Notes: generated by a model not told the origin, from the sequence alone. Counted from the stretch's first letter, positions 5,092 to 18,283 are shown. The stretch: 64,000 nucleotides of DNA from Planctomycetota bacterium (GCA_965222115.1 CBDCTJ010000007.1:1792001-1856000); one strand, 5' to 3'. Numbers and translations: made by a program.

Positions 5092-6411
5092 TTAGATGCC
5101 TAGGTAGTGCTTCCAGAGCGCGCATTGGTGTCGAAACGTTGTTCGTAGGGCGCCGTGTTCGATCCATTTTCGTGCAGACGTGATCACGGCAGCGTTTGCA
5201 ATGCGGATGCGACCAAAAGGGCGGAGCTGTCTGAGCAACTTGAAGTCTTCCATGGCGCCGGTGAGGGGGAAGCCACCCGCCGATTGAAACGTTTCTTTGT
5301 GCATGAATAGCGCTTGGTCGCCGTAGGGGCGCTTAAGGAGGCGGGAACGAATGTTGGCGCCACTTTCAATCACGCGCAGTCCGCGCCCCGGCGCGTCGAG
5401 TGCGAACCGAAATGCGCCCGTAGATGTGTTGGGGATCGCTAGCGTATTCATGACGTGTTGCACGTAGCCGTGGGGAAGTCGGGAATCGGCGTGGAGAAAT
5501 AAGAGCGTGTTGCTGCGTGCGGCTTCGGCACCCGTGTTCAGCTGAAGGCCGCGTGACGGCTCACACAAGAGTACGCGTGCACCCATAGAGGCAGCGATTT
5601 CGGGGGTGCGATCCGTACTCTTCGCGTCCACGACGATGCGCTCCACACGTTCGTTCGATGCGGTAGACGCGAGCGCGGCAGCAATATGGTCCTGTTCATT
5701 GAGCGTTGGAATGACAATAGACAACTCAGGCGTCGCGTCGTGTGGGGTGCCAAGTAGGTTTGGTAAATCCTCGCCCACATCGATGTCATCGCGTGTTGTG
5801 AGTGTGTGAAGAGATGTATTCAGTGATCGAAGCCGGTTCGATGTGTAGCGAAAGACGTTGCTAGTGCTCCAAGGCGTGCCTTCGAAGAACGGGACCACGC
5901 CGTTTCGCACACCGACCAAGTAGTAACCACCATCGCTTGCGGGACCCAACACTACGTCCGAATCATTGAGTGCATCCAACGTATCGTGGAGGTCACCTTC
6001 CGACAGTGTCGGGCAATCGCTGCCAACGATGACCGTCTTGGTAAAGCCTCGATCCCACGCACGCACCAATACGCGTTGCATTCGCGCACCCAGATCCCCA
6101 TCGCCTTGGTCCGTGCACGTGCGATGGCGCGCCATGTGGCGCAGCATGCCATTCTCCCATGCGCCGGTTACGCAAAGTTCGATGTCAAATGGGCGCTGAT
6201 GGCTTGATCGATCTATCGTTTCGATCGTGCGACGAAGCAATTGGGCGGCAAGTTGTGCGGCTCCGTGGGCACCGAGGCGTGGGTTGAGCCTGGTCTTCGT
6301 GGAGCCGGGCGAAGGTTCGCGGCACATGATCACGACCCGATCGGCGACGCGCGGCGCACGTTGGGACGCGAGACGCATCGTTCGTTGCCTCAAGCGAGCG
6401 TGCCGCCGCAT
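5092..6411 (-). CDS. Fused TIGR04282 (DUF2064) + TIGR04283 (GT2) arsenosugar-associated glycosyltransferases
   Basis: N-half PGSTKTRL, QGDGDLGARM, VGSDCP, LGPASDGGYYLVG; C-half SIVIPTLNE, LNTGA, LFLHADS, PYGDQALF, MED, TSARKW. Confidence 0.9.
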   Translation of the reverse strand: MRRHARLRQRTMRLASQRAPRVADRVVIMCREPSPGSTKTRLNPRLGAHGAAQLAAQLLRRTIETIDRSSHQRPFDIELCVTGAWENGMLRHMARHRTCTDQGDGDLGARMQRVLVRAWDRGFTKTVIVGSDCPTLSEGDLHDTLDALNDSDVVLGPASDGGYYLVGVRNGVVPFFEGTPWSTSNVFRYTSNRLRSLNTSLHTLTTRDDIDVGEDLPNLLGTPHDATPELSIVIPTLNEQDHIAAALASTASNERVERIVVDAKSTDRTPEIAASMGARVLLCEPSRGLQLNTGAEAARSNTLLFLHADSRLPHGYVQHVMNTLAIPNTSTGAFRFALDAPGRGLRVIESGANIRSRLLKRPYGDQALFMHKETFQSAGGFPLTGAMEDFKLLRQLRPFGRIRIANAAVITSARKWIEHGALRTTFRHQCALWKHYLGI

Positions 6412-7403
6412 GACGAGCCAGATCCGGCCGTACAGCCGAAGCAGTGAGGCGCCGTGGCGATGCTACGTTTCAAAAACTCGGCGGGTTCGAAGTCACGGAT
6501 GTGGGCCACGTCGCCACGCACTCTCATGCCCAGAGCAAAGTTGAAGTCGCAATCGTGTAACGTTCCGTCCCACCCAACATGGACTTGATGGCGACACATC
6601 AGTCCGTCAACGGTTGACGGATTGAACGACGTGCGCAACAAGGTGTCGTAGGCAGCGTACCGATCTGCTTTTTGAAGATCATTCTTGAAACGGCCAATAG
6701 GCATATTGGTAATGGCAAGGAGTTGATTGAACCGAATACCAAAGCGCTCGTCGAGTTCGCGGCGATAGTCGCGTTCGAGGGCCGCCTGGTCGGGCGGTAA
6801 CGATGGGCCACCTGGGTTGTAGATCAGGTCAAGTTGAAGGTCTTGCTCTTGCGTGTCTGCGCCATAGCCGAGTGCGTTGAGACGGCGAATGGCCTCAATG
6901 CTCTCGCCATAGACGTGGCGACCGCGTTGTTTGGTGACGTTCTCTTCGAGATAGCACGGAAGCGACGCCATGACATGCAGCCCAAGCTTTGCGAAAAGCT
7001 CAGGCATGGTGTCGTACCGTGGGTGAAGAAGAATGGTGAGGTTGGAACGCACAATAACGCGCAATCCCAATGTGCGCGCCTCGGTAACAAATGCGGCAAA
7101 GTGCGGATGCATCTCCGGGGCGCCGCCCGTTACGTCGAGCGTGGACGCACCGCAACGAACCGCGGCCTTCAACACGTGGTCCATGGTCTTCTTCGTCATC
7201 TCCTCGGTTCGTGACGGGGATGATTCCACGTGGCAGTGGTGGCATGCAAGATTGCAGACCAAACCAATGTTGACCTGAACTGTATCCACCGCATGCGCAG
7301 TCAGGGGCGCACCGGTCTCGACGGCGACGCGCGTTGCGAAAGACGTCGCGGCAGCAGGCGCTCCGGCATGATGGTGGTGAGACTGTTCTTGCGGCGTGTT
7401 CAT
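6390..7403 (-). CDS. arsS: Radical SAM/Cys-rich protein, arsenosugar biosynthesis ArsS family (TIGR04167, DUF3641)
   Basis: QVNIGLVCNLACHHCHVESSP, DVTGGAPEMHP, ASLPCY, LMCR, DCDFN, HCFGCTAGSGSSCGG; start chosen at ATG 7403. Confidence 0.9.
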   Translation of the reverse strand: MNTPQEQSHHHHAGAPAAATSFATRVAVETGAPLTAHAVDTVQVNIGLVCNLACHHCHVESSPSRTEEMTKKTMDHVLKAAVRCGASTLDVTGGAPEMHPHFAAFVTEARTLGLRVIVRSNLTILLHPRYDTMPELFAKLGLHVMASLPCYLEENVTKQRGRHVYGESIEAIRRLNALGYGADTQEQDLQLDLIYNPGGPSLPPDQAALERDYRRELDERFGIRFNQLLAITNMPIGRFKNDLQKADRYAAYDTLLRTSFNPSTVDGLMCRHQVHVGWDGTLHDCDFNFALGMRVRGDVAHIRDFEPAEFLKRSIATAPHCFGCTAGSGSSCGGTLA

Positions 7404-7530
7404 GCAGTGGCTCTCCCTGGCCGCGAGGTTGACCGCTAGGCTACGCGGCACGTTGAGGGTCGTGGACGAGTCGTTCGCCTGGATTTCACGAGTAGTCGAT
7501 TCCACAAGTTACCGAATAAAAATTCCGATA

Positions 7531-7627: not shown

Positions 7628-8782
7628 TTATTCGATCCGCATGACGATATGCAAGCCTTGACGGCTACGCACGATCTTAGGGCAAATGGTCCCAGGTTTG
7701 GTAATGATCAATGCGTCCGCGATTTCGTCCATTCCCTGACCGTGAGATACGACGCCGATGGTTCCACGGTCGCCGGACGTCATGGCATCGTCGCTGTGAT
7801 CGATGACCGCTTTGTCCCAATAACTTGGGTCAGCCTGCAACTTGGCCAACAACTCGTTCGCCAGTTTTTCCGCATCTTGAGGTCTGCGCTGAATGCGAAT
7901 ATTGGCGCGCGCGTCTTGAACTAAAATATGACGCGTAAAGGCGCGTACCAATTCGCCGCGTACAAGCACCGCGATGCCGCGCGGCGAGTCATGGGGTTTA
8001 GCGAATTGCTTGGGGCGAAGGTTGTAGAGCGCTTGGAAGAATGGATCATTCTCTTCGGCGGGAGAGATGAGGCCCAAGTACTCATTGGGGTGAGCACGTG
8101 AACCGGGACTGAAACGTTCCCGTGCCTGTTTGAGCGTGAGCTTGCCTTCGCTCAGTAACTGGATCGCTTCGCGCGCCCGCTTAAAGGCCTCGTCGCGCGT
8201 CAATGTGGAATTGGTTGGTTCTACGCCCGGTGCGGGCTCGCGCTTGTAAGGAATGTGAAAGCCGTATACGGGAATGCGAAATCGCTTCTCAAGTTCGACT
8301 GCTTCTTTGAACGGATGCCGGTAGATGACGTGCCAACCGCTTCGTGTACGAATAGGCGGACTCAACATGCCCGGCATCAAACACTGCGTCGCCCCGTGCC
8401 ACGCTGTGTTGAGGTCGATTGGAGGAAACCCCTGAAACCCGTCACTAAATCGATTGCTGGATTCACTTCGCGTTCTGGCCATTGCGGCGAAATCGGCGCC
8501 CTTGCGGAGTTCATGGAAGGCCTTCCACGCGTTCTTTCGTGCCAAGCGGTCGGGTTGGTCACGTGGGACGGCGAATATGATCTCAGAGATGCCGAATACG
8601 TGATGATCGACCTCGCGCAGTTCTCCGGCAGGCGTCTGCACGATGAGTCGCGAGGACTCGCCGTCACCGGAACACGCGGAAAGACACCACGCGAACAGTA
8701 CCAGCCACGCGGCCATTCCCACGCGTCCTTGGATGCACAGACGCCGCAACGCGTTTGCCTCGGTCATCGGTTCCAACTCCAA
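7628..8782 (-). CDS. Parvulin/PpiC-type peptidylprolyl isomerase lipoprotein with several rotamase domains
   Basis: Lipobox LSAC; GADFAAMARTRSE, SPPIRTRSGWHVI, RHILV, HSDD..GDRGTIG, VRSRQGLHIV. Confidence 0.85.
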   Translation of the reverse strand: MELEPMTEANALRRLCIQGRVGMAAWLVLFAWCLSACSGDGESSRLIVQTPAGELREVDHHVFGISEIIFAVPRDQPDRLARKNAWKAFHELRKGADFAAMARTRSESSNRFSDGFQGFPPIDLNTAWHGATQCLMPGMLSPPIRTRSGWHVIYRHPFKEAVELEKRFRIPVYGFHIPYKREPAPGVEPTNSTLTRDEAFKRAREAIQLLSEGKLTLKQARERFSPGSRAHPNEYLGLISPAEENDPFFQALYNLRPKQFAKPHDSPRGIAVLVRGELVRAFTRHILVQDARANIRIQRRPQDAEKLANELLAKLQADPSYWDKAVIDHSDDAMTSGDRGTIGVVSHGQGMDEIADALIITKPGTICPKIVRSRQGLHIVMRIE

Positions 8783-9944: not shown

Positions 9945-10041
9945 GGTACTCGAAGCGAACTAGCCCGCATCGGCCGTGTGTCTCGACCTCAATTCGGCGA
10001 CGACGGTGAATCCCCAGGGCCGTTCCGGGTACGATGATGCG

Positions 10042-11889
10042 ATGCGCCTCAGGCTCCTCCCTCGAACCGTGCGACGCCTATCGTGGTCTGGGACACGCTG
10101 GCAAGGCCTTGCGCTCTGCGTGGCGGCGGTAGGACTTACATCGGCGATCGCCTGGGCACGTGTTGACGTCGAGGCGCGATCGGCGTCCGAGATCTACGAA
10201 CGCAAGGGCACAATTGCTGCATGCGTCACCTACGTGGCCGAGGAACTCAAGGCCCGCGTACAAAACACGGGTGGGAAGGCGCAATCCGAGCTGCTTCTGA
10301 TCGTGGACCCGGCCGCCTCCCTCTCAGACGACATTGCGGCGATGGCCGCGTCGCTACAGGAGGTGTGGCGCGTGGGCCCGCCCTCGCTACGCATAGGGGT
10401 TTACGGCGTAGGCAACGATACGTGGTCGGCTCCCACGCGCGTGCCGCCAACCGTGAAGAGCGCTCTTGAGGAAGCGCGCTTCATGAATGTGGAGGGCATC
10501 AAGAATCTCCACGCGGCCATCCGCGATGCCGTGGAGCAACTCGGGGAGCCGCGTGACGACATCATTCGCAGCCTCCTGGTGATCTCGGATCGCAGCGCGG
10601 AGTGCGAGGACAATGTTGAGGAGACGCGCGAAGCCTTGTTGGACGCGGGCGTCAGCTTCTATTGCATCGCGCCCGAGTCTGGGTTCGAGCGTACGTGGGT
10701 GCAGGCGTTCAAAGCACGCGGCGACTCGAAACAGGGCGTTACGGAGCGATTCAATCCCATGCCCAAAAAGGCTGAGGACGGCGCGCTCTTCTACGGGAGC
10801 GAGGTCGCATTTGGTCTGGTGCCCTACCGCTGGGAATTCCGATTCGCGCAGACCGACTTTGTGTGGGTACGTCCACCTGCCTATCCCGTTCCCTCCGGCT
10901 TTGGGTATTGGAGTCTGGCCACGCTTTGTCATGCCACCGGCGGACGTTATTTCATCTATGACTTTGGCATCCCCGCCGCGAGCAAGGCGCGCACCGACAA
11001 GAAAAAGAAGCGCAAGGAACTCTACAACTATGCGCGGCTGTCCCTGTTGACGCCCGACCTTCGGGCTCGTCGTCAAGTGCTCAAGTCACTCAGCAAGGAC
11101 TGGCGGGCCACATCGATCGTTCGCATTTGGGAACGCCTTGCCAACGAGTCGGTGCCTATTCTTCAAGAGCGCGGCACGTTGGAAGCGCGTGGTTCCACGC
11201 TTGTACCTCGACCTGCCCGCGCCGTAAGGGCGTCCGCGACGCCGGTCACCTGGTACACCGACATGAAGGATGTGCGGGCCGCCATGAAGCTTGCTCGCGA
11301 ACGGATCACCGCCCTAGAGAACGTGTTGAAGTCGTGGCGCACTGCCAATGCCAAAGAGCGCCCTGCCGCAAACCGAAGAGATGGCTTCTCGGAGCGACTT
11401 GAAGCTGATTTCCAGTTGCTGGGCGTGCAGTTGCGCAAGCTCCGCTTTCACTGGGGCGAAGTCATGGCGGCGCTCAAGAGCATTCGCAGTTTGGATGTGA
11501 GCTATCGCCGCGTTCGTCTACTGCCCAAGGTGCTTCTCGTGGGTGTGGGACCTCCTGCATTGAAAATTGATCTGGAGGACAAGGAGCGCAATGCCCGCTT
11601 CGCTGAGCTCTGCCTGAGTATGCAGAAAATGAGCGACCAGTTCGAAGGCACGCCGTGGTCGCTTGTGCTTAACAAAGGAAGCACGCTGTCGTTTATCAAA
11701 GACGTTCATGTGATCGAAGACGAAGCGCGAAACAAGTCATCACGCACGCGGTCCGAAAAGGACGGTTCCGGCAACGGCAAGAAGAAGAAAGATAAGAACA
11801 AGAAGAAGAAAAAGAAGAGGCCATCAGCACCTCCGCCACCAGGACCTCGTCCCGGCAGTGGGTCCGGTGGCCCCACGAGCGGCGGCTAA
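10042..11889 (+). CDS. Secreted protein with degenerate vWA-like domain and Lys/Pro-rich tail
   Basis: Signal peptide; LLIVDPAASL (degenerate DxSxS), SLLVISD, LCHATGGRY; poly-Lys/poly-Pro C-terminus. Confidence 0.7.
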   Translation: MRLRLLPRTVRRLSWSGTRWQGLALCVAAVGLTSAIAWARVDVEARSASEIYERKGTIAACVTYVAEELKARVQNTGGKAQSELLLIVDPAASLSDDIAAMAASLQEVWRVGPPSLRIGVYGVGNDTWSAPTRVPPTVKSALEEARFMNVEGIKNLHAAIRDAVEQLGEPRDDIIRSLLVISDRSAECEDNVEETREALLDAGVSFYCIAPESGFERTWVQAFKARGDSKQGVTERFNPMPKKAEDGALFYGSEVAFGLVPYRWEFRFAQTDFVWVRPPAYPVPSGFGYWSLATLCHATGGRYFIYDFGIPAASKARTDKKKKRKELYNYARLSLLTPDLRARRQVLKSLSKDWRATSIVRIWERLANESVPILQERGTLEARGSTLVPRPARAVRASATPVTWYTDMKDVRAAMKLARERITALENVLKSWRTANAKERPAANRRDGFSERLEADFQLLGVQLRKLRFHWGEVMAALKSIRSLDVSYRRVRLLPKVLLVGVGPPALKIDLEDKERNARFAELCLSMQKMSDQFEGTPWSLVLNKGSTLSFIKDVHVIEDEARNKSSRTRSEKDGSGNGKKKKDKNKKKKKKRPSAPPPPGPRPGSGSGGPTSGG

Positions 11890-11911
11890 CCCGATCTAGG
11901 TGTTCGTGCTT

Positions 11912-11941
11912 GTTTACATTCGCTGGCGTTTACATTCGCTG
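11912..11941. repeat. Direct repeat GTTTACATTCGCTG x2, 16-nt period
   Basis: Copies at 11912-11925 and 11928-11941. Confidence 0.85.
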
Positions 11942-12008
11942 ACAATTGAGCGGGGGCGCGTGAATCGAATCGCCGTCCCCTCCCCCATCTGAGTACTCGC
12001 CGATCCGC

Positions 12009-12044
12009 AAATGAAAAGAGCGCACACCACCTGGCGCGCGCTCT
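12009..12044 (-). terminator. Intrinsic terminator of Cys-rich lipoprotein A
   Basis: Minus-strand AGAGCGCGCGCC-AGGT-GGTGTGCGCTCT followed by TTTCATTT. Confidence 0.75.
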
Positions 12045-12126
12045 CTTGCAGTCGTTGCATTACGTCCCGAGCGACCCCAGTCGCTCGACAGCAACGCGTG
12101 TGGCCGATTCGAATACCGGCTTGACG

Positions 12127-12576
12127 TTACTTGAGATCGCCTTCAACGCCGTTGGTGGCGGGCTGCGTCTCGGGCACGGCTTCCTCAGCGGGGGGCGCGC
12201 CTTCGGGCATAGGCATTTCCGTGACGGCGCCATCACCCGTGTAAGGAACGATCACGCCGGGATCGGCGTAGGGCATGGACATGCCGGGGTCCATGTAGCC
12301 GCCGCAAGGTGGGGGTGCGCAGGGCGACACCATCGGCATGGGAGCGGGTGCGCACGGTGAGACCATGGGCGCAGGTGCACATGGCGCTACGACGGGCGCA
12401 GGCTCACATGTGACGCACGGTGCAGGTGCTGGTGCCGGGGTGGGTGCAGGCGCAGGGCAGCACTTGGGTTGGCAAGGCTTGCAGGACGGACAACCAAATC
12501 CGCCTTTGCATCCGGCGAGCAGGGAAAGACCAATAACGGCAGCCCCGATCACCAGCATGGATCGAAATGTGTTCAT
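12127..12576 (-). CDS. Cys/Pro-rich lipoprotein A (149 aa)
   Basis: GAGGGAG RBS; lipobox LAGC; GCPSCKPCQPKCC then PAPA and (V/M)SPCAP repeats; acidic tail. Confidence 0.85.
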   Translation of the reverse strand: MNTFRSMLVIGAAVIGLSLLAGCKGGFGCPSCKPCQPKCCPAPAPTPAPAPAPCVTCEPAPVVAPCAPAPMVSPCAPAPMPMVSPCAPPPCGGYMDPGMSMPYADPGVIVPYTGDGAVTEMPMPEGAPPAEEAVPETQPATNGVEGDLK

Positions 12577-12700
12577 GATGATTCTCCCTCGTCAGTCGTC
12601 TGCTCGACTGGTGACTAGCGGGCGCAGGAGCCGCCACCATCTGTGGCCAACGCTCCTCTGAAATGAATGGCCCCTCGTAAAGAGGATCCCGCCCGCTGAA

Positions 12701-12728
12701 ATGCTAATGACACGCCCCCGGCGCGCAA
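12701..12728 (-). promoter_or_regulatory. Putative sigma70 promoter of lipoprotein A
   Basis: TTGCGC-N16-TAGCAT on minus strand, just downstream of the terminator of gene B. Confidence 0.45.
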
Positions 12729-12772
12729 GTCGGTACGCAGCAACTCATGAACTTCTCCGCTGCGGTAGGCAC

Positions 12773-12807
12773 AAAAAAACGGACGGGAGCAAGAATGCTC
12801 CCGTCCG
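12773..12807 (-). terminator. Intrinsic terminator of Cys-rich lipoprotein B
   Basis: Perfect stem CGGACGGGAGCA/TGCTCCCGTCCG followed by T7 on minus strand. Confidence 0.9.
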
Positions 12808-12912
12808 AGTTTGGTCAGCAGAAACGCAGAACGTAGTGGTCGCCCTCCCATGATTCGGGTAGGCGGGGTACGACGGTCTGCGGCTTTACTTTACGACTTC
12901 AAGCTGATTTGC

Positions 12913-13299
12913 TTAGCCGCAGGCCTTGCCACCAGCGCCGCACGCCATGGCGGGTGCGGGGGAGCTCATGGGGGCGCCCATTGCGGGGGCACCCATCATC
13001 GGTGCGGGTGAGGAGTAGACGGGGCCACTCGAGTACGTGGGTGCGGGCATAGCCGAACCAGCGTAGGGATCGCAGGGCGAAACAGGTGCACAGGGCGAAA
13101 CGACCGGTGCCGGTGCTGTCACGACCGGAGCGGGCGCGGGTGCGGGCGCCGGTGCGGCGGGCTTGCAGCAGGAGTCGCAAGAGTCGCAACAGCTATTGCA
13201 GCCGAAGCCGGGGAGTCCAGGAAGAAGACCACAGCCCGTCATGAAGCTGCAGCCTGCGACGATGACGGCAAAGGTCATCAATGTACGAAGCTTGGTCAT
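12913..13299 (-). CDS. Cys/Pro-rich lipoprotein B (128 aa)
   Basis: Start ATG 13299; lipobox MTGC; GLLPGLPGFGCNSCCDSCDSCCK, PAPA/VSPCAP repeats, ends MACGAGGKACG. Confidence 0.85.
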   Translation of the reverse strand: MTKLRTLMTFAVIVAGCSFMTGCGLLPGLPGFGCNSCCDSCDSCCKPAAPAPAPAPAPVVTAPAPVVSPCAPVSPCDPYAGSAMPAPTYSSGPVYSSPAPMMGAPAMGAPMSSPAPAMACGAGGKACG

Positions 13300-13837
13300 T
13301 TTCTTTGCTTTCCGGCCTTCTGGTGCAACGGGCAATCAACGTGACAAACCGTGCGCGTGGCCTATTTGAAACTATCTGACTCTTTGAATGTTTGGTTTTG
13401 AACGTTTCGCGTTCCTAAACGCGGAACTTGACGACCGGTGGAAGATCGCCCCAATGACAAAGGGGCGCCATCTCGCGTCCGACACGTACCGCCCTAGCAT
13501 GGGCGCCGCTATCGACTGCCAGACTTGTTCCAACGATCACCTGGCTAGAACATTCGGCGGCGCATGGGCGATTCTGTACCGCCCTCCGGAAGTACACCCC
13601 GCACATCGCGCATACGCGGCATGGGGGGAGCTCACGGCCTCCGAACTCCTAGTCGCCCCAGATCTTAGCCGGCCCGCCCGAGCCGCAACGGAATTCTTGC
13701 CCAATTTGTGCTGTAGATCTCGAATTTGCTATGTCGGATTCCAATGCCGATTCTCTCGGAGACGCCTCACACATACTCCACACAAATCCATGACGAAATG
13801 AATCCTGCGAGATTCACAGTAACGTCGAACAAGCCCC

Positions 13838-13879
13838 AAAAATGAAGAACGACGGCCGAGCGCAATGGCCCAACCGTCG
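13838..13879 (-). terminator. Intrinsic terminator of Cys-rich lipoprotein C
   Basis: Minus-strand CGACGGTTGGGC-CATTGC-GCTCGGCCGTCG (12 bp including G-U pairs) then TTCTTCATTTTT. Confidence 0.7.
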
Positions 13880-13947
13880 AACGAAAGAGAAACGCCGATT
13901 GTGGGGCGAAAGCCCCCGCACTGCGTCATCTTGTTGTTTGATTGCTT

Positions 13948-14112
13948 CTAGCAGCCGCAGGGGTTGCAGCAAGAAGTCGGAGCGGGGGCGCAGCAGGGAT
14001 CGCAGCTATTGCAGCAACCGCCACCAAGACCAGGCAACAAGCCACAGCCGCTCATCATGATTGCGCCCAACGAAAGAACGCTGAGCATTACGAAAGTACG
14101 TGCCTTACGCAT
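13948..14112 (-). CDS. Small Cys-rich lipoprotein C (54 aa, not in ORF track)
   Basis: Manual translation MRKARTFVMLSVLSLGAIMMSGCGLLPGLGGGCCNSCDPCCAPAPTSCCNPCGC*; GGGAG RBS; lipobox MSGC; shares GCGLLPGL with gene B. Confidence 0.85.
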   Translation of the reverse strand: MRKARTFVMLSVLSLGAIMMSGCGLLPGLGGGCCNSCDPCCAPAPTSCCNPCGC

Positions 14113-14239
14113 AGTGTTTCCAATCTCCCTTGAGGACTGCTTTCAGGTGCGCACGCGTCCGGGGCACCCTTCGCGAAAACCGCCCTTCCCAATTGGGTGT
14201 TGTTTTTGATCCCAGCGAGAACTTCCCGCCGGGACGCGG

Positions 14240-14268
14240 AATATAGACGGCGTGTCCAAAATCGGCAA
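14240..14268 (-). promoter_or_regulatory. Putative sigma70 promoter of lipoprotein C
   Basis: TTGCCG-N17-TATATT on minus strand. Confidence 0.65.
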
Positions 14269-14533
14269 CGACCGTCTGGCGTTTCCTATCGCCGAGGCTG
14301 ATGCCAGCCTTGACCGATATTCGCGCAAAGTGAGGCTCTTCCATGCCTCGCAATCCCTATGGAAGGGTTTGTTTGTACTGAATTCCGGCGACGTTAGGAG
14401 CGCGTATCGTACTCAGCCGGTTCTTGGCCCCGCAGAAAATCGGCCCGTTGTCTCTGAGGGTGCCAATGGAGAAGGCGGCGCAGAATGCCGCTAAGGCGAA
14501 TCGACTACTTACACCCGCTGCGCCCGTTTTGCT

Positions 14534-14662
14534 CTACTTGCATCCACATTTCGGTGCATCGCATGGGTCCTGGCAGAGGCAAGAACAGCCCGCTACGGTG
14601 CCGGCAAGGAATACGCAAGCGATCAGGGCAAGTGCAAACCGGCGAACGACGGTGAGTGACAT
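14534..14662 (-). CDS. Small Cys-rich lipoprotein D (42 aa, not in ORF track)
   Basis: Manual translation MSLTVVRRFALALIACVFLAGTVAGCSCLCQDPCDAPKCGCK*; AGGAGG RBS; lipobox VAGC; TATACT -10-like box at 14696-14701. Confidence 0.8.
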   Translation of the reverse strand: MSLTVVRRFALALIACVFLAGTVAGCSCLCQDPCDAPKCGCK

Positions 14663-14789
14663 GGGAACCCTCCTAGAGATTGGCGATGCAGGCCGAGTAT
14701 AGGGGGTTCGCCCTGAAGCCCGCGCTTGATTTGATTCAAATCACGTAAAGATCGTGCAGCGCTTGACGGTTTCTTGCTCGTCGAGGTGC

Positions 14790-14826
14790 AAAAAAGACGA
14801 GACACACCCCACAAGGGATGTGTCCC
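14790..14826 (-). terminator. Intrinsic terminator of Cys-rich lipoprotein E
   Basis: Minus-strand GGGACACATCCC-TTGT-GGGGTGTGTCTC then GTCTTTTTT. Confidence 0.8.
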
Positions 14827-14948
14827 AAAGTGGTTGCTGCCGCGCGACTCGCACCTCAAGGGCGCTGATATGCCAAGGGCATCCGGATACGCCAAAGGCA
14901 TTAACGTCGCGCTAGCAGCCGAATTTAGCAGTTTGAGGCTGGTTTGCG

Positions 14949-15170
14949 TTACCCGCCGCAGCTACTGCCACAGCTTCCGCCACCGCAGCTCTTGCCGCTG
15001 TCGCTTCCACCGTTCCATCCGAGACCACCGCTTGCGCCACCGCAGCAGGGGCTCTCGTAGACGGCTGTGCAGCTCTTGTCACAGCAAGAGTTGCAGTTGT
15101 TGAAGAGGGAACAACCCCCCACGAAGCTGGCTGCGCCGAGCAGGGCCAGCACGAAAAATACCTTGCGCAT
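14949..15170 (-). CDS. Small Cys/Gly-rich lipoprotein E (73 aa)
   Basis: GGGAGG RBS; MRKVFFVLALLGAASFVGGC lipobox; NNCNSCCDKSC, SPCC, KSCGGGSCGSSCGG. Confidence 0.85.
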   Translation of the reverse strand: MRKVFFVLALLGAASFVGGCSLFNNCNSCCDKSCTAVYESPCCGGASGGLGWNGGSDSGKSCGGGSCGSSCGG

Positions 15171-15374
15171 TGAAAGCTTCCTCCCTGTGGGCGGAGACAG
15201 CGCTAGCGTCACCCTGCCCGGAAACGTTGAACTATTATTGCGAAGGAAATGTGAAGGGGCAAGGCCCCAGACACCCGCTTCGCGCAATCTAGATCAATTT
15301 CTAGACCTCGATTGCATCACGCCCTATCGACGCCCGGCGAGGAATCTAGAAGCTGCATTCCATTCGCGCCGAGT

Positions 15375-15392
15375 TTGTCATCGCTTTGTCAC
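15375..15392. promoter_or_regulatory. OmpR/PhoB-type direct repeat (pho-box-like)
   Basis: TTGTCATCGCTTTGTCAC: TTGTCA repeated at 11-nt spacing between divergent gene E and purD. Confidence 0.35.
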
Positions 15393-15484
15393 GCGAGCGC
15401 GATGGTCTTGCACCCCGGTCAAACTGTATGCATCTCCTGCCGTCCCGCACTATGGCGGCGCTGCGCAGCGCTTGGAGGATCCAC

Positions 15485-16780
15485 ATGAAAGTGCTTGTCA
15501 TTGGTAGTGGGGGGCGCGAGCACGCGTTGGTCGTCGCGCTATCGCGTTCACCGTCTGTGAAACGCGTGTTTTGTGCGCCCGGAAATGGCGGCATGATCGG
15601 CGACGCAACACCGGTACCTGAGATTCCAGTTCACGACGGCGAGGGCATCGTGGCGTTCGCGAAACGGGAGACAATTGATCTTGCGGTGATCGGCCCCGAA
15701 GCGCCCCTTGTTGCGGGGCTTGCGGACTTGCTGCGTGACGAGGGCATCGCGGTGTTTGGGCCTGGGCGAAGTGGCGCTCGCCTCGAGGGCAGCAAGGTGT
15801 TCGCCAAGGAATTGATGGCCAAACACGACATTCCAACGGCCTCGTACCACGCCTTTACCCAAGTGGCCGAGGCGCTCGATTATGTGCGCGGCAACAACTA
15901 CTACCCGATTGTGATCAAGGTCGATGGACTCGCGGCCGGCAAAGGCGTGGTGATTTGCGAAGACGAGCCGGCGGCAACCAAAGCGCTGCACGAACTCATG
16001 ACCGAGAAACGATTTGGTGAAGCCGGCGATCGCATTGTGATCGAGGAGTTCTTGCGCGGCGAAGAGGTGTCTGTGCACGCCATCACCGATGGATCCACGC
16101 TCTTCCTCCTGCCTTCCGCTCAGGATCACAAGCAGATTGGTGAGGGTGATACTGGACCCAACACGGGCGGCATGGGCGCCTACAGTCCAACGCCTTTGGT
16201 TGCCGGACCTGTTATGGACAAGGTCGTTTCATCGGTCTTTGTGCCGATTCTTCATGCGTTACGAATGGAGCGCGTTGAATACCGCGGCGTAATTTTTGCT
16301 GGCCTCATGATGACGCCAGGCGGTCCACGCGTACTAGAGTTCAACTGCCGGTTCGGTGATCCGGAAGCGCAGGTCATGCTTCCACGGCTCAAGAATGATT
16401 TGGGTCTTGTACTTAAGGCTGCTGCCGACGGAAAACTTGATGACAATGACGCCTTGCGACCATCCATTGACAATCAATCATGCATGGGCGTGGTCATGGC
16501 ATCGGGCGGCTATCCCAGCAACTACCGCACGGGCAAGGTCATTTCCGGCGTAGAAACAGCCGACGCCATGGATGGCGTCACGGTCTATCACGCCGGAACG
16601 CGGCTACGCGGAGACGACTTGGTGACAGCGGGTGGACGCGTGCTCTGCGTGACGGCATCGGGCGAAGATCTTGCCGAGGCCCGCGACCGCGCGTATCGCG
16701 CCGTAGACGCCATTGAGTTCGACGGTGCCTACGCCCGCCGGGACATCGGCCATCGAGCGCTGGGAACTACGGCGAGCTAA
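15485..16780 (+). CDS. purD: Phosphoribosylamine--glycine ligase
   Basis: MKVLVIGSGGREHAL, APGNGG, GPEAPL, LEGSKVFAK, GLAAGKGV, QDHK, GPNTGGMGAYSP, EFNCRFGDPE. Confidence 0.98.
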   Translation: MKVLVIGSGGREHALVVALSRSPSVKRVFCAPGNGGMIGDATPVPEIPVHDGEGIVAFAKRETIDLAVIGPEAPLVAGLADLLRDEGIAVFGPGRSGARLEGSKVFAKELMAKHDIPTASYHAFTQVAEALDYVRGNNYYPIVIKVDGLAAGKGVVICEDEPAATKALHELMTEKRFGEAGDRIVIEEFLRGEEVSVHAITDGSTLFLLPSAQDHKQIGEGDTGPNTGGMGAYSPTPLVAGPVMDKVVSSVFVPILHALRMERVEYRGVIFAGLMMTPGGPRVLEFNCRFGDPEAQVMLPRLKNDLGLVLKAAADGKLDDNDALRPSIDNQSCMGVVMASGGYPSNYRTGKVISGVETADAMDGVTVYHAGTRLRGDDLVTAGGRVLCVTASGEDLAEARDRAYRAVDAIEFDGAYARRDIGHRALGTTAS

Positions 16781-17704: not shown

Positions 17705-18283
17705 GTGAACCCCGATGCCCCCTCGTCCGGTACACCCAGCAAGCGCAGTGGCGGTACCGACACACGCTCGTCCACCACGAATGACTCTGAATTGAGCGCG
17801 GACGGCCAGAAGGTGATTGAACAGGCGCTGGCCGAATTTGAGGTGTTTCTACGGGCCAAACGCCTCAAGATGACTGAGCAGCGGCGCAAGATGATCTCCA
17901 CGGCGCTCTCTCAGGGTGGGCACTTCACCGCCGAAGATCTCTACCACGAACTCGCGCGCATGGAGCAGTCGGTATCGATGGCCACCGTCTATCGAGGGTT
18001 GGCGTTGCTGGAAGAGGCCAACCTGCTCGAGGGCCACGATTTCGATGACGGATTGCGACGGTACGAGCGCCTGCTGGACCGCGAGCATCACGATCACATG
18101 ATTTGCATGGATTGCCGCGCGGTGCTTGAGTTCCAGGATGACGAGATTGAGGCACTGCAACACGCCGCCGCAGAGCGTCACGGCTTCACCTTGGAAGATC
18201 ATCGCCTCGTGCTCTATGTGCGGTGTCCGGATGCGGAGCAGCCCGACGACTGCACACGTCGTGATGCCATGCGAACCGAGTAG
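17705..18283 (+). CDS. fur: Fur family transcriptional regulator
   Basis: KMTEQR, HFTAEDLY, SMATVYRGL, HHDHMICMDC; subfamily (Fur/Zur/PerR) not resolved. Confidence 0.9.
   Translation: MNPDAPSSGTPSKRSGGTDTRSSTTNDSELSADGQKVIEQALAEFEVFLRAKRLKMTEQRRKMISTALSQGGHFTAEDLYHELARMEQSVSMATVYRGLALLEEANLLEGHDFDDGLRRYERLLDREHHDHMICMDCRAVLEFQDDEIEALQHAAAERHGFTLEDHRLVLYVRCPDAEQPDDCTRRDAMRTE

Follow-up and report, generated by a model that had tools for sequence, protein, structure and literature searches.

Unusual richness in protein, cystine and proline has long been ascribed to planctomycete envelopes, and the 1986 study by Liesack is said to have found them rich in the latter two; the YTV proteins are the sole cysteine-rich components named so far. 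This report concerns a tandem array of five genes for small, cysteine-rich putative lipoproteins beside purD, on a 64,000-nucleotide stretch of the genome of a Planctomycetota bacterium (GCA_965222115.1, CBDCTJ010000007.1:1792001-1856000). That whole stretch is referred to as the window, and positions are counted from its first letter unless a contig or locus is named. Judged by sequence, the array belongs to a previously undescribed, lineage-restricted lipoprotein family without a relative in Pfam, NCBIfam or PDB, and it offers concrete, family-wide, sequence-defined candidates for envelope thiol proteins in a lineage without YTV.

An obvious comparison is chlamydial OmcA (EnvA, PF03503), which passages of PMC2811131 describe as a 9 kDa cysteine-rich lipoprotein of the disulfide-linked outer membrane complex, thought to stiffen the envelope via disulfides. 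The array genes likewise encode small cysteine-rich predicted lipoproteins of the Planctomycetes-Verrucomicrobia-Chlamydiae (PVC) superphylum, similar to OmcA in size class, lipobox and cysteine density. They differ in being five rather than one, in having no detectable homology to OmcA and no adjacent omcB-like DUF11 gene, and in adding Asx-Pro-Cys repeats (Asx, Asp or Asn), Pro/Ala rods and a C-terminal cysteine-pair module. We know of no such grammar, rods or module in OmcA. The YTV proteins (PF07639) are also cysteine-rich envelope proteins, from the same phylum; passages of PMC8567305, PMC12673574 and PMC10632474 report them as wall proteins of Planctomycetia with a proposed role in rigidity control, and the passage of PMC8567305 that cites Liesack 1986 does so just for the proteinaceous wall. 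In contrast to the array products they are large, with frames of about 450-550 amino acids (aa) and repeated 43-residue domains.

Metallothioneins, such as bacterial SmtA/BmtA and MymT and the fungal copper thioneins, are comparable in size, cysteine fraction, CxC, CxxC and CC spacing, scarcity of histidine and aromatic residues, disorder in the metal-free state and copy-number variation. The array proteins differ from them in having no profile match, in their lipoprotein export signals and in a proline content of 20%, which to our knowledge is unusual for metallothioneins. Braun's lipoprotein Lpp is a small, abundant-type lipoprotein, anchored by lipid at its N-terminus and functional at its C-terminal end, and two array proteins (A and D, listed below) end in lysine; Lpp, however, is a cysteine-free coiled coil, and model NF011925 matches a signal peptide only, at 13.3 bits against a cut-off of 108 bits. 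By analogy only, the ultra-high-sulfur keratin-associated proteins of hair may be added, with their short Cys/Pro repeats, tandem multigene arrays, disulfide matrix and fast evolution of repeat number; these are eukaryotic, cytoplasmic and free of a lipid anchor, and no homology is implied.

A lipoprotein gene array beside purD

The array consists of the following open reading frames (ORFs), from ORF listing and direct reading:

12127..12576, minus strand: gene A, 149 aa
12913..13299, minus strand: gene B, 128 aa from ATG; an upstream TTG at 13335 would give 140 aa (12 more residues)
13948..14112, minus strand: gene C, 54 aa
14534..14662, minus strand: gene D, 42 aa
14949..15170, minus strand: gene E, 73 aa, the member nearest to purD; core gene in the taxonomic family

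All five are co-oriented, with spacers of 286-612 bp, and ORF listing placed them where an earlier note on this DNA had read them. Each precursor begins with a short basic n-region, followed by a hydrophobic core and a lipobox (LAGC in A, MTGC in B, MSGC in C, VAGC in D, VGGC in E), with Cys23 as the lipid cysteine of both A and B. A rule-based lipobox test, applied as a PROSITE-type rule (Lys/Arg in the n-region, hydrophobic core, lipobox Cys at 15-35), was passed by 5/5. Export by the twin-arginine (Tat) route was considered and dropped, as the signals are of the Sec/lipoprotein type. Shine-Dalgarno-like GGAG/GGGAG sequences are clear upstream of four genes and weaker for B.

Cysteine accounts for 8, 9, 19, 17 and 14% of precursors A, B, C, D and E, respectively, and the mature parts are cysteine-rich as well as rich in Pro, Gly and Ala. 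Gene A encodes a membrane-proximal cluster C-x2-C-x2-C-x3-CC, a Pro/Ala rod with three "VSPCAP"-type units and an acidic, cysteine-free tail whose last residue is lysine; an iron-sulfur reading of its CxxCxxCxxxC-CP motif was discarded, as the motif follows from three-residue periodicity. The order in B is MTGC, GLLPGL, a CNSCC/DSC cluster, a PAPA rod and the C-terminal module ACGAGGKACG. Mature C (32 aa) has nine cysteines besides the lipid Cys, and mature D (17 aa) has five and a C-terminal lysine; gene D resembles "S-[SW]-LCCDPC" genes of relatives. In E, the VGGC lipobox is followed by a conserved V-Y-E-S-P-C-C core and a Gly/Ser/Cys tail. CNSC occurs in B, C and E, GCGLLPGL in B and C, and PCAP units and PAPA rods in A and B; the lipoboxes and motifs of the earlier note, including the tail of E, were all found as it gave them.

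That note had taken the five for a paralogous set, a claim which stood in part. When mature parts were compared by local alignment with 300 composition-preserving shuffles, similarity exceeded that of shuffles for A-B (z 8.4), B-C (z 5.6) and A-C (z 3.4) and was marginal for B-E (z 2.3), while neither D against all others nor E against A, C and D rose above shuffles. A search with gene B matched C at E 1.2e-5 and A at E 0.022, and A and B have repeat units in common at the DNA level (repeats D1-D3). At the sequence level A, B and C are thus demonstrably related, and D and E are alike in architecture and composition only. A promoter or operator motif common to the five genes was rejected, the repeats found being located within coding regions. 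A six-frame scan of the genome to which the window belongs (a 7-contig, 4.55 Mb assembly, 90% complete) for ORFs combining a lipobox with a cysteine-rich mature part returned 12 ORFs, five of which lie in this single 3 kb array, which is more than chance. By eye, two of the seven others look like genuine small lipoproteins.

Conservation in relatives, on whose absence the earlier note had said the idea would founder, was found. PurD was located in 41/41 related genomes, at 47-61% identity, and up to 6 kb upstream of it was taken for 20 of them, 17 of these loci belonging to the same taxonomic family (f1). In 16/17 same-family loci, one to six small cysteine-rich lipoprotein genes occupy the slot upstream of purD, divergent from it as in the window, and the lone empty locus spans just 716 bases. 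None were present upstream of purD in eight other-family loci (two of them shorter than 1.3 kb); two further families likewise had none there, and a third has an unrelated 164-aa lipoprotein instead. In an alignment of 17 E-type sequences, the lipid Cys, one more Cys and V-Y-x-x-P-C-C do not vary, and the lipid Cys and V-Y-x-x-P-C-C are invariant across genera whose purD is just 56-61% identical. The E-type profile matched 27/29 family genomes, including 11/11 of high quality. In a phylum-wide scan, it matched 10/10 family genomes and the window's own genome, 0/5 sister-family genomes and, weakly (E 4.3e-4), one of the remaining 285. This sole non-family match (L074:1984-2148, from a distant planctomycete family) encodes a 54-aa lipoprotein with CNSC and CNTCNTC; a sporadic occurrence of small cysteine-rich lipoproteins in other parts of the phylum is possible. 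In a set of 1.84 billion representative proteins, the E-type profile found only 22 matches at E<=1e-3, all of 53-112 aa. The public protein P0004 is 95% identical to gene E, and the public records with E-type genes are metagenome-assembled genomes of uncultured Planctomycetia, Planctomycetota or Planctomycetales.

These data bear on the view that the five are chance ORFs in GC-rich, low-complexity DNA. The ORFs are indeed very short and of low complexity, and single-sequence searches find nothing; conservation nevertheless effectively refutes that view, which is hardly credible given orthologues with invariant residues, always in the same frame and position beside purD, a 95%-identical public protein, Shine-Dalgarno sites and terminator-like hairpins. 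The five are real, selected genes, and the predicted lipoprotein family is a core, purD-linked feature of one uncultured family of Planctomycetia.

Searches for known families were negative. Pfam gave no family for any of the five at E<=10, metallothionein families included; NCBIfam gave just two far-sub-threshold signal-peptide matches, both for gene A. PF03503 matched none of the five genes at E<=10 and 0/34 E-type relatives at E<=1; its scan of the whole genome gave three sub-threshold matches, none in the array, of at most 14.4 bits against a 25-bit cut-off, and an equal signal was seen in 6/14 control genomes. The kinship to OmcA suggested earlier is therefore not borne out. LPAM_1 of Pfam was weakly touched by 4/34 E-type relatives, and no PDB sequence scored below E 0.06. 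Single-sequence searches gave no word-sharing candidate for gene C and nothing at E<=0.01 among 8000 candidates for gene A; for gene B, the convincing matches in 41 genomes were its own paralogues only, and a metagenome scan with gene E gave 593 pattern matches, none confirmed. The ESM Atlas offered unnamed Planctomycetota "lipoprotein/hypothetical" clusters (0.80-0.89), as leads only. YTV (PF07639) had no match in the five proteins or the own genome and one weak match in the 29 genomes of the family; the search works, genomes of family f5 being 6/6 positive. A full-text literature search retrieved OmcA and YTV papers only and no description of such proteins.

Cysteine grammar and a portable C-terminal module

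Statistics were calculated on the pooled mature sequence (2406 residues) of 48 proteins, encoded in the window and 16 same-family loci, after one Arg-rich off-frame ORF had been dropped. The pool consists of 20.3% P, 16.4% C, 15.0% A, 12.7% G, 5.4% D and 4.7% N, with 0.1% His and 2.8% F+W+Y. Proline directly precedes 186 cysteines, most commonly as D-P-C (71), N-P-C (51) and S-P-C (27), and acidic residues flank Cys. CxxC was observed 90 times against 47.9 +/- 6.2 in shuffles (0/500 shuffles reached 90), and C-x5-C 39 times against 26.2 (3/500 reached 39). Relatives have (NQPNPC)n and (DPC)n in tandem, the runs being of variable length. Both the number and the spacing of cysteines vary among orthologues, and the count after the lipid Cys is odd in 30/48 proteins, which speaks against a fixed fold held by internal disulfides and in favor of metal clusters or bonds between molecules. 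AlphaFold2 modeling of the E family (34-sequence alignment) gave a mean pLDDT (predicted local distance difference test) of 48.8, with the signal helix as the only predicted structure. As modeled, the pattern is that of a disordered, repeat-evolving thiol-rich chain, not of a fixed disulfide-knotted fold. The Asx-Pro-Cys repeat grammar with its CxxC enrichment is newly described here.

Equally new is a C-terminal, Gly-rich cysteine pair, which ends 18/48 proteins and has a lysine inside the module in 11 of those. Its form is CG-x(3-5)-CG, often CG[AG]GGK[AS]CG; the lysine is missing from many versions, including that of gene E, with the cysteine pair kept. Searched as degenerate DNA, the exact nine-residue motif gave 15 matches in 8/29 family genomes, none in 290 non-family planctomycete genomes, and none in the 29 family genomes when the pattern was reversed as a control. 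The module is thus restricted to the family, but it is not restricted to the cysteine-rich proteins: outside the purD locus it ends three Pro/Ala linker lipoproteins (L048, L050, L055) in which the lipid Cys is the only other cysteine, as well as two lipoproteins of about 310 aa (L049, L051) with N-terminal NPC repeats and "RPAS...IPAEY" repeats. One match (L052), internal to an 886-aa frame, may be due to chance. The combination of lipid anchor, spacer and terminal cysteine pair is the strongest hint in the sequences that the distal end attaches to something, and the portable module marks further members.

The repeat lipoproteins form a family in their own right, with units of about 24 residues ("V-C/L-V-R-P-A-S...I-P-A-E-Y") and no Pfam match. 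In the own genome they are encoded outside the window at C3:178115-179707, C7:1083358-1084005 and C7:2615770-2616303; the relatives' versions, L049 and L051, combine N-terminal NPC repeats with a C-terminal CGxGGKACGK hook.

Possible functions of the array

We tentatively favor, as quite possibly correct, a reading in which the array encodes lipid-anchored, disordered, thiol-rich envelope subunits that are cross-linked by disulfides and are analogues, not homologues, of OmcA; the analogy is plausible, the homology rejected. Lipidation, location, disulfide cross-linking and structural role are what we infer here, next to the genes, signals, conservation, grammar, module sharing and absence of a known family reported above. 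The precursors would be exported by Sec, lipidated by Lgt and cleaved by LspA; the own genome has one copy of LspA (119 bits) and two of Lgt (206 and 191 bits). The mature parts would be intrinsically disordered Pro/Cys/Ala/Gly chains of Asx/Ser-Pro-Cys units, each kept by its N-terminal lipid at a membrane face of the envelope, and their dense, irregularly numbered thiols would link the chains by disulfides to one another and to further envelope proteins that have cysteines. The Pro/Ala rods, which are graded in length, may serve as spacers and the C-terminal cysteine pair as a distal hook, which could also plug otherwise Cys-free lipoproteins into the same network. The array would then do the job thought for chlamydial OmcA, arrived at independently, and cross-linking, if true, would mean convergent evolution of the OmcA solution. 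With regard to redox conditions, a VKOR match was present in 23/28 relatives (a DsbA match, where also found, lay in the same open frame) and DsbB in 6/28; given VKOR in 23/28, exported thiols are expected to be oxidized in most family members. The own genome has two heme-copper oxidase genes.

A more far-reaching version, which we regard as rather doubtful, would be an independently evolved, gene-encoded "thiol chain-mail", in which lipid-anchored Asx-Pro-Cys peptides are cross-linked, the cysteine-pair hook covalently joins unrelated lipoproteins and the lattice replaces the absent YTV; the OmcA principle would then have been invented twice in the PVC superphylum, the second time without homology.

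Several observations weigh against disulfide cross-linking and its extension to a lattice. In the own, 90%-complete assembly, no VKOR, DsbB, DSBA/DsbA or Thioredoxin_4 was detected, nor did tblastn match a relative's VKOR-DsbA fusion to it; the own VKOR-DsbA gene may have been lost or may lie in the missing 10%. CC pairs are not enriched over shuffles in the 48 proteins. An OmcB-like DUF11 partner, for which the earlier note had proposed a search, does not occur near the array, and the two DUF11 ORFs found are on other contigs (C1:282312-282872 and C3:268724-269047, frames with about 2.4% Cys). YTV was present in only 8/151 other-family planctomycete genomes sampled; it is missing from most other families too, and its absence here is therefore no specific complement to the array. 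Counts of conserved loci and genomes overstate the support, given that the relatives are not independent. Finally, high cysteine content, CxxC/CxC spacing, the lack of His and aromatic residues, small size, disorder and copy variation fit metallothioneins equally well.

The last point leads to the main rival, which we consider somewhat unlikely: a lipid-anchored, metallothionein-like buffer whose Asx-Pro-Cys and CxxC thiolates would bind Cu(I), Zn, Cd or Hg at a membrane face or the surface, with tandem copies scaling its capacity. Ten cysteines in the 32 residues of mature C and six in the 17 of mature D (lipid Cys included), the near absence of His and aromatics, the enrichment of CxxC, the variable cysteine count and spacing with repeat expansion, e.g. 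(NQPNPC)n in relatives, the predicted disorder of the apo-state, the acidic residues beside Cys and the lack of a detected Dsb or VKOR oxidase in the own assembly would all suit such a buffer. No metallothionein family of Pfam matches even at E<=10, however, and the conserved neighborhood contains no metal sensor, efflux pump or chaperone. The bacterial metallothioneins SmtA and MymT are cytoplasmic, whereas the array proteins are predicted to be exported, into a compartment that is oxidizing in most relatives (VKOR in 23/28); moreover, a two-Cys hook on long Cys-free tethers suits cross-linking better than storage. If metal binding is true, no earlier metallothionein-like system that is exported and anchored by lipid is known to us. 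Mature C, D and E span 17-54 residues and are small enough for synthesis or expression and for direct redox and metal tests.

Improbable in our estimation is a third possibility, namely spacer or tether lipoproteins that act independently of disulfide polymerization, as a Braun-like wall tether attached via the module lysine, as a periplasmic thiol redox buffer or in surface adhesion. The architecture, in which a Pro/Ala linker of varying length joins the lipid anchor at the N-terminus to a short, conserved module at the C-terminus, would fit, as would the lysine inside the module in 11/48 proteins, the C-terminal lysine in 9/48 (A and D included) and the single L,D-transpeptidase (YkuD) gene of the own genome; but many versions of the module, that of gene E among them, have no lysine while the cysteine pair is kept, and 16% Cys would be left unexplained. 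Far less probable still are precursors of ribosomally synthesized and post-translationally modified peptides (RiPPs) with modified cysteines and an enzyme encoded elsewhere, an alternative raised in the earlier note and weakened by the present results. The products are short and Cys-rich and come from a multi-copy tandem array, and a radical-SAM (S-adenosylmethionine)/DUF3641 gene lies 4.6 kb away at 6390-7505. Their N-termini, however, are lipoprotein signal peptides and not leader peptides, MNIO/DUF692 (PF05114) has no match in the 90%-complete genome and none among the neighbors, the syntenic loci examined have no adjacent gene for a maturase, protease or exporter, and the radical-SAM gene pairs with a DUF2064/glycosyltransferase-2 (GT2) gene and is absent from the vicinity of the array in all 20 relatives' loci.

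Possible transcription signals and flanking genes

Hairpins resembling terminators follow four of the five genes, and the intergenic region between E and purD has a promoter-like site:

12020..12039, minus strand: terminator-like hairpin after A
12780..12807, minus strand: strong terminator-like hairpin after B, 12 pairs followed by T7
13850..13879, minus strand: terminator-like hairpin after C
14798..14827, minus strand: terminator-like hairpin after E
15171..15487: divergent intergenic region E-purD, containing the promoter-like site of E and, just upstream of the Shine-Dalgarno site, a GC-rich hairpin in the 5' untranslated region (5'-UTR)

In total, eight terminator-like sites were counted in the region, against 4.2 +/- 2.6 in shuffles. 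Together with the spacers of 286-612 bp, these hairpins suggest that the genes are separate transcription units. A GC-rich hairpin lies 5-12 nt upstream of the E-type Shine-Dalgarno site in the window (15171-15240, minus strand) and at the equivalent positions of L012-L028. Its outer arms are often GACCC...GGGTC and its inner stem varies, the hairpin of the window differing in sequence. RNAalifold on a MAFFT alignment recovered just four pairs and no compensatory change, single-sequence folds were no better than shuffles (z +0.7 to -1.4), and a loose sequence pattern for the hairpin has 544 matches genome-wide. It may be an mRNA-stabilizing or translational element; Rfam gave no match in 11800-15600 at E<=1.

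The array is flanked by the following genes:

15488..16780, plus strand: purD (GARS_N/A/C), a syntenic anchor and not a functional part of the array
9976..11889, plus strand: gene for a 637-aa protein without a Pfam family, convergent with the array
7628..8782, minus strand: parvulin-type peptidyl-prolyl isomerase (PPIase), PrsA-like, with its own lipobox LSAC (LSAC|S)
6390..7505, minus strand: radical-SAM/DUF3641 gene, 4.6 kb from the array
5092..6411, minus strand: DUF2064 + GT2 fusion, overlapping the radical-SAM/DUF3641 gene

Synteny extends to these flanks. The 637-aa protein has an N-terminal hydrophobic segment followed by a Lys-rich and then a Pro/Gly-rich tail, and homologues with 41-50% identity are encoded within 6 kb in 8/20 loci. 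A lipobox-bearing parvulin PPIase is found within 6 kb of purD in 9/20 loci, despite local rearrangements, and is a possible foldase for Pro-rich exported proteins. An SNase-like gene occurs within 6 kb in 7/20 loci. The radical-SAM/DUF3641 gene was near the array in 0/20 relatives' loci, and together with the DUF2064/GT2 gene it seems to form a self-contained pair with no relation to the array. Beyond purD, at 17705-18283, lies a Fur-family gene, which was not seen in the relatives' upstream loci.

Elsewhere in the own genome, contig C6 (48116 bases) has a GC content of 39.7%, compared with 55-59% in the other six contigs, and may be a foreign element or mis-binned. Two further plausible small Cys-containing lipoproteins are encoded outside the window at C3:442369-442635 (88 aa) and C7:2508450-2508668 (72 aa), and at C7:9106-9195, also outside the window, a stop-to-stop candidate frame contains four tandem "EPSPCD" units.

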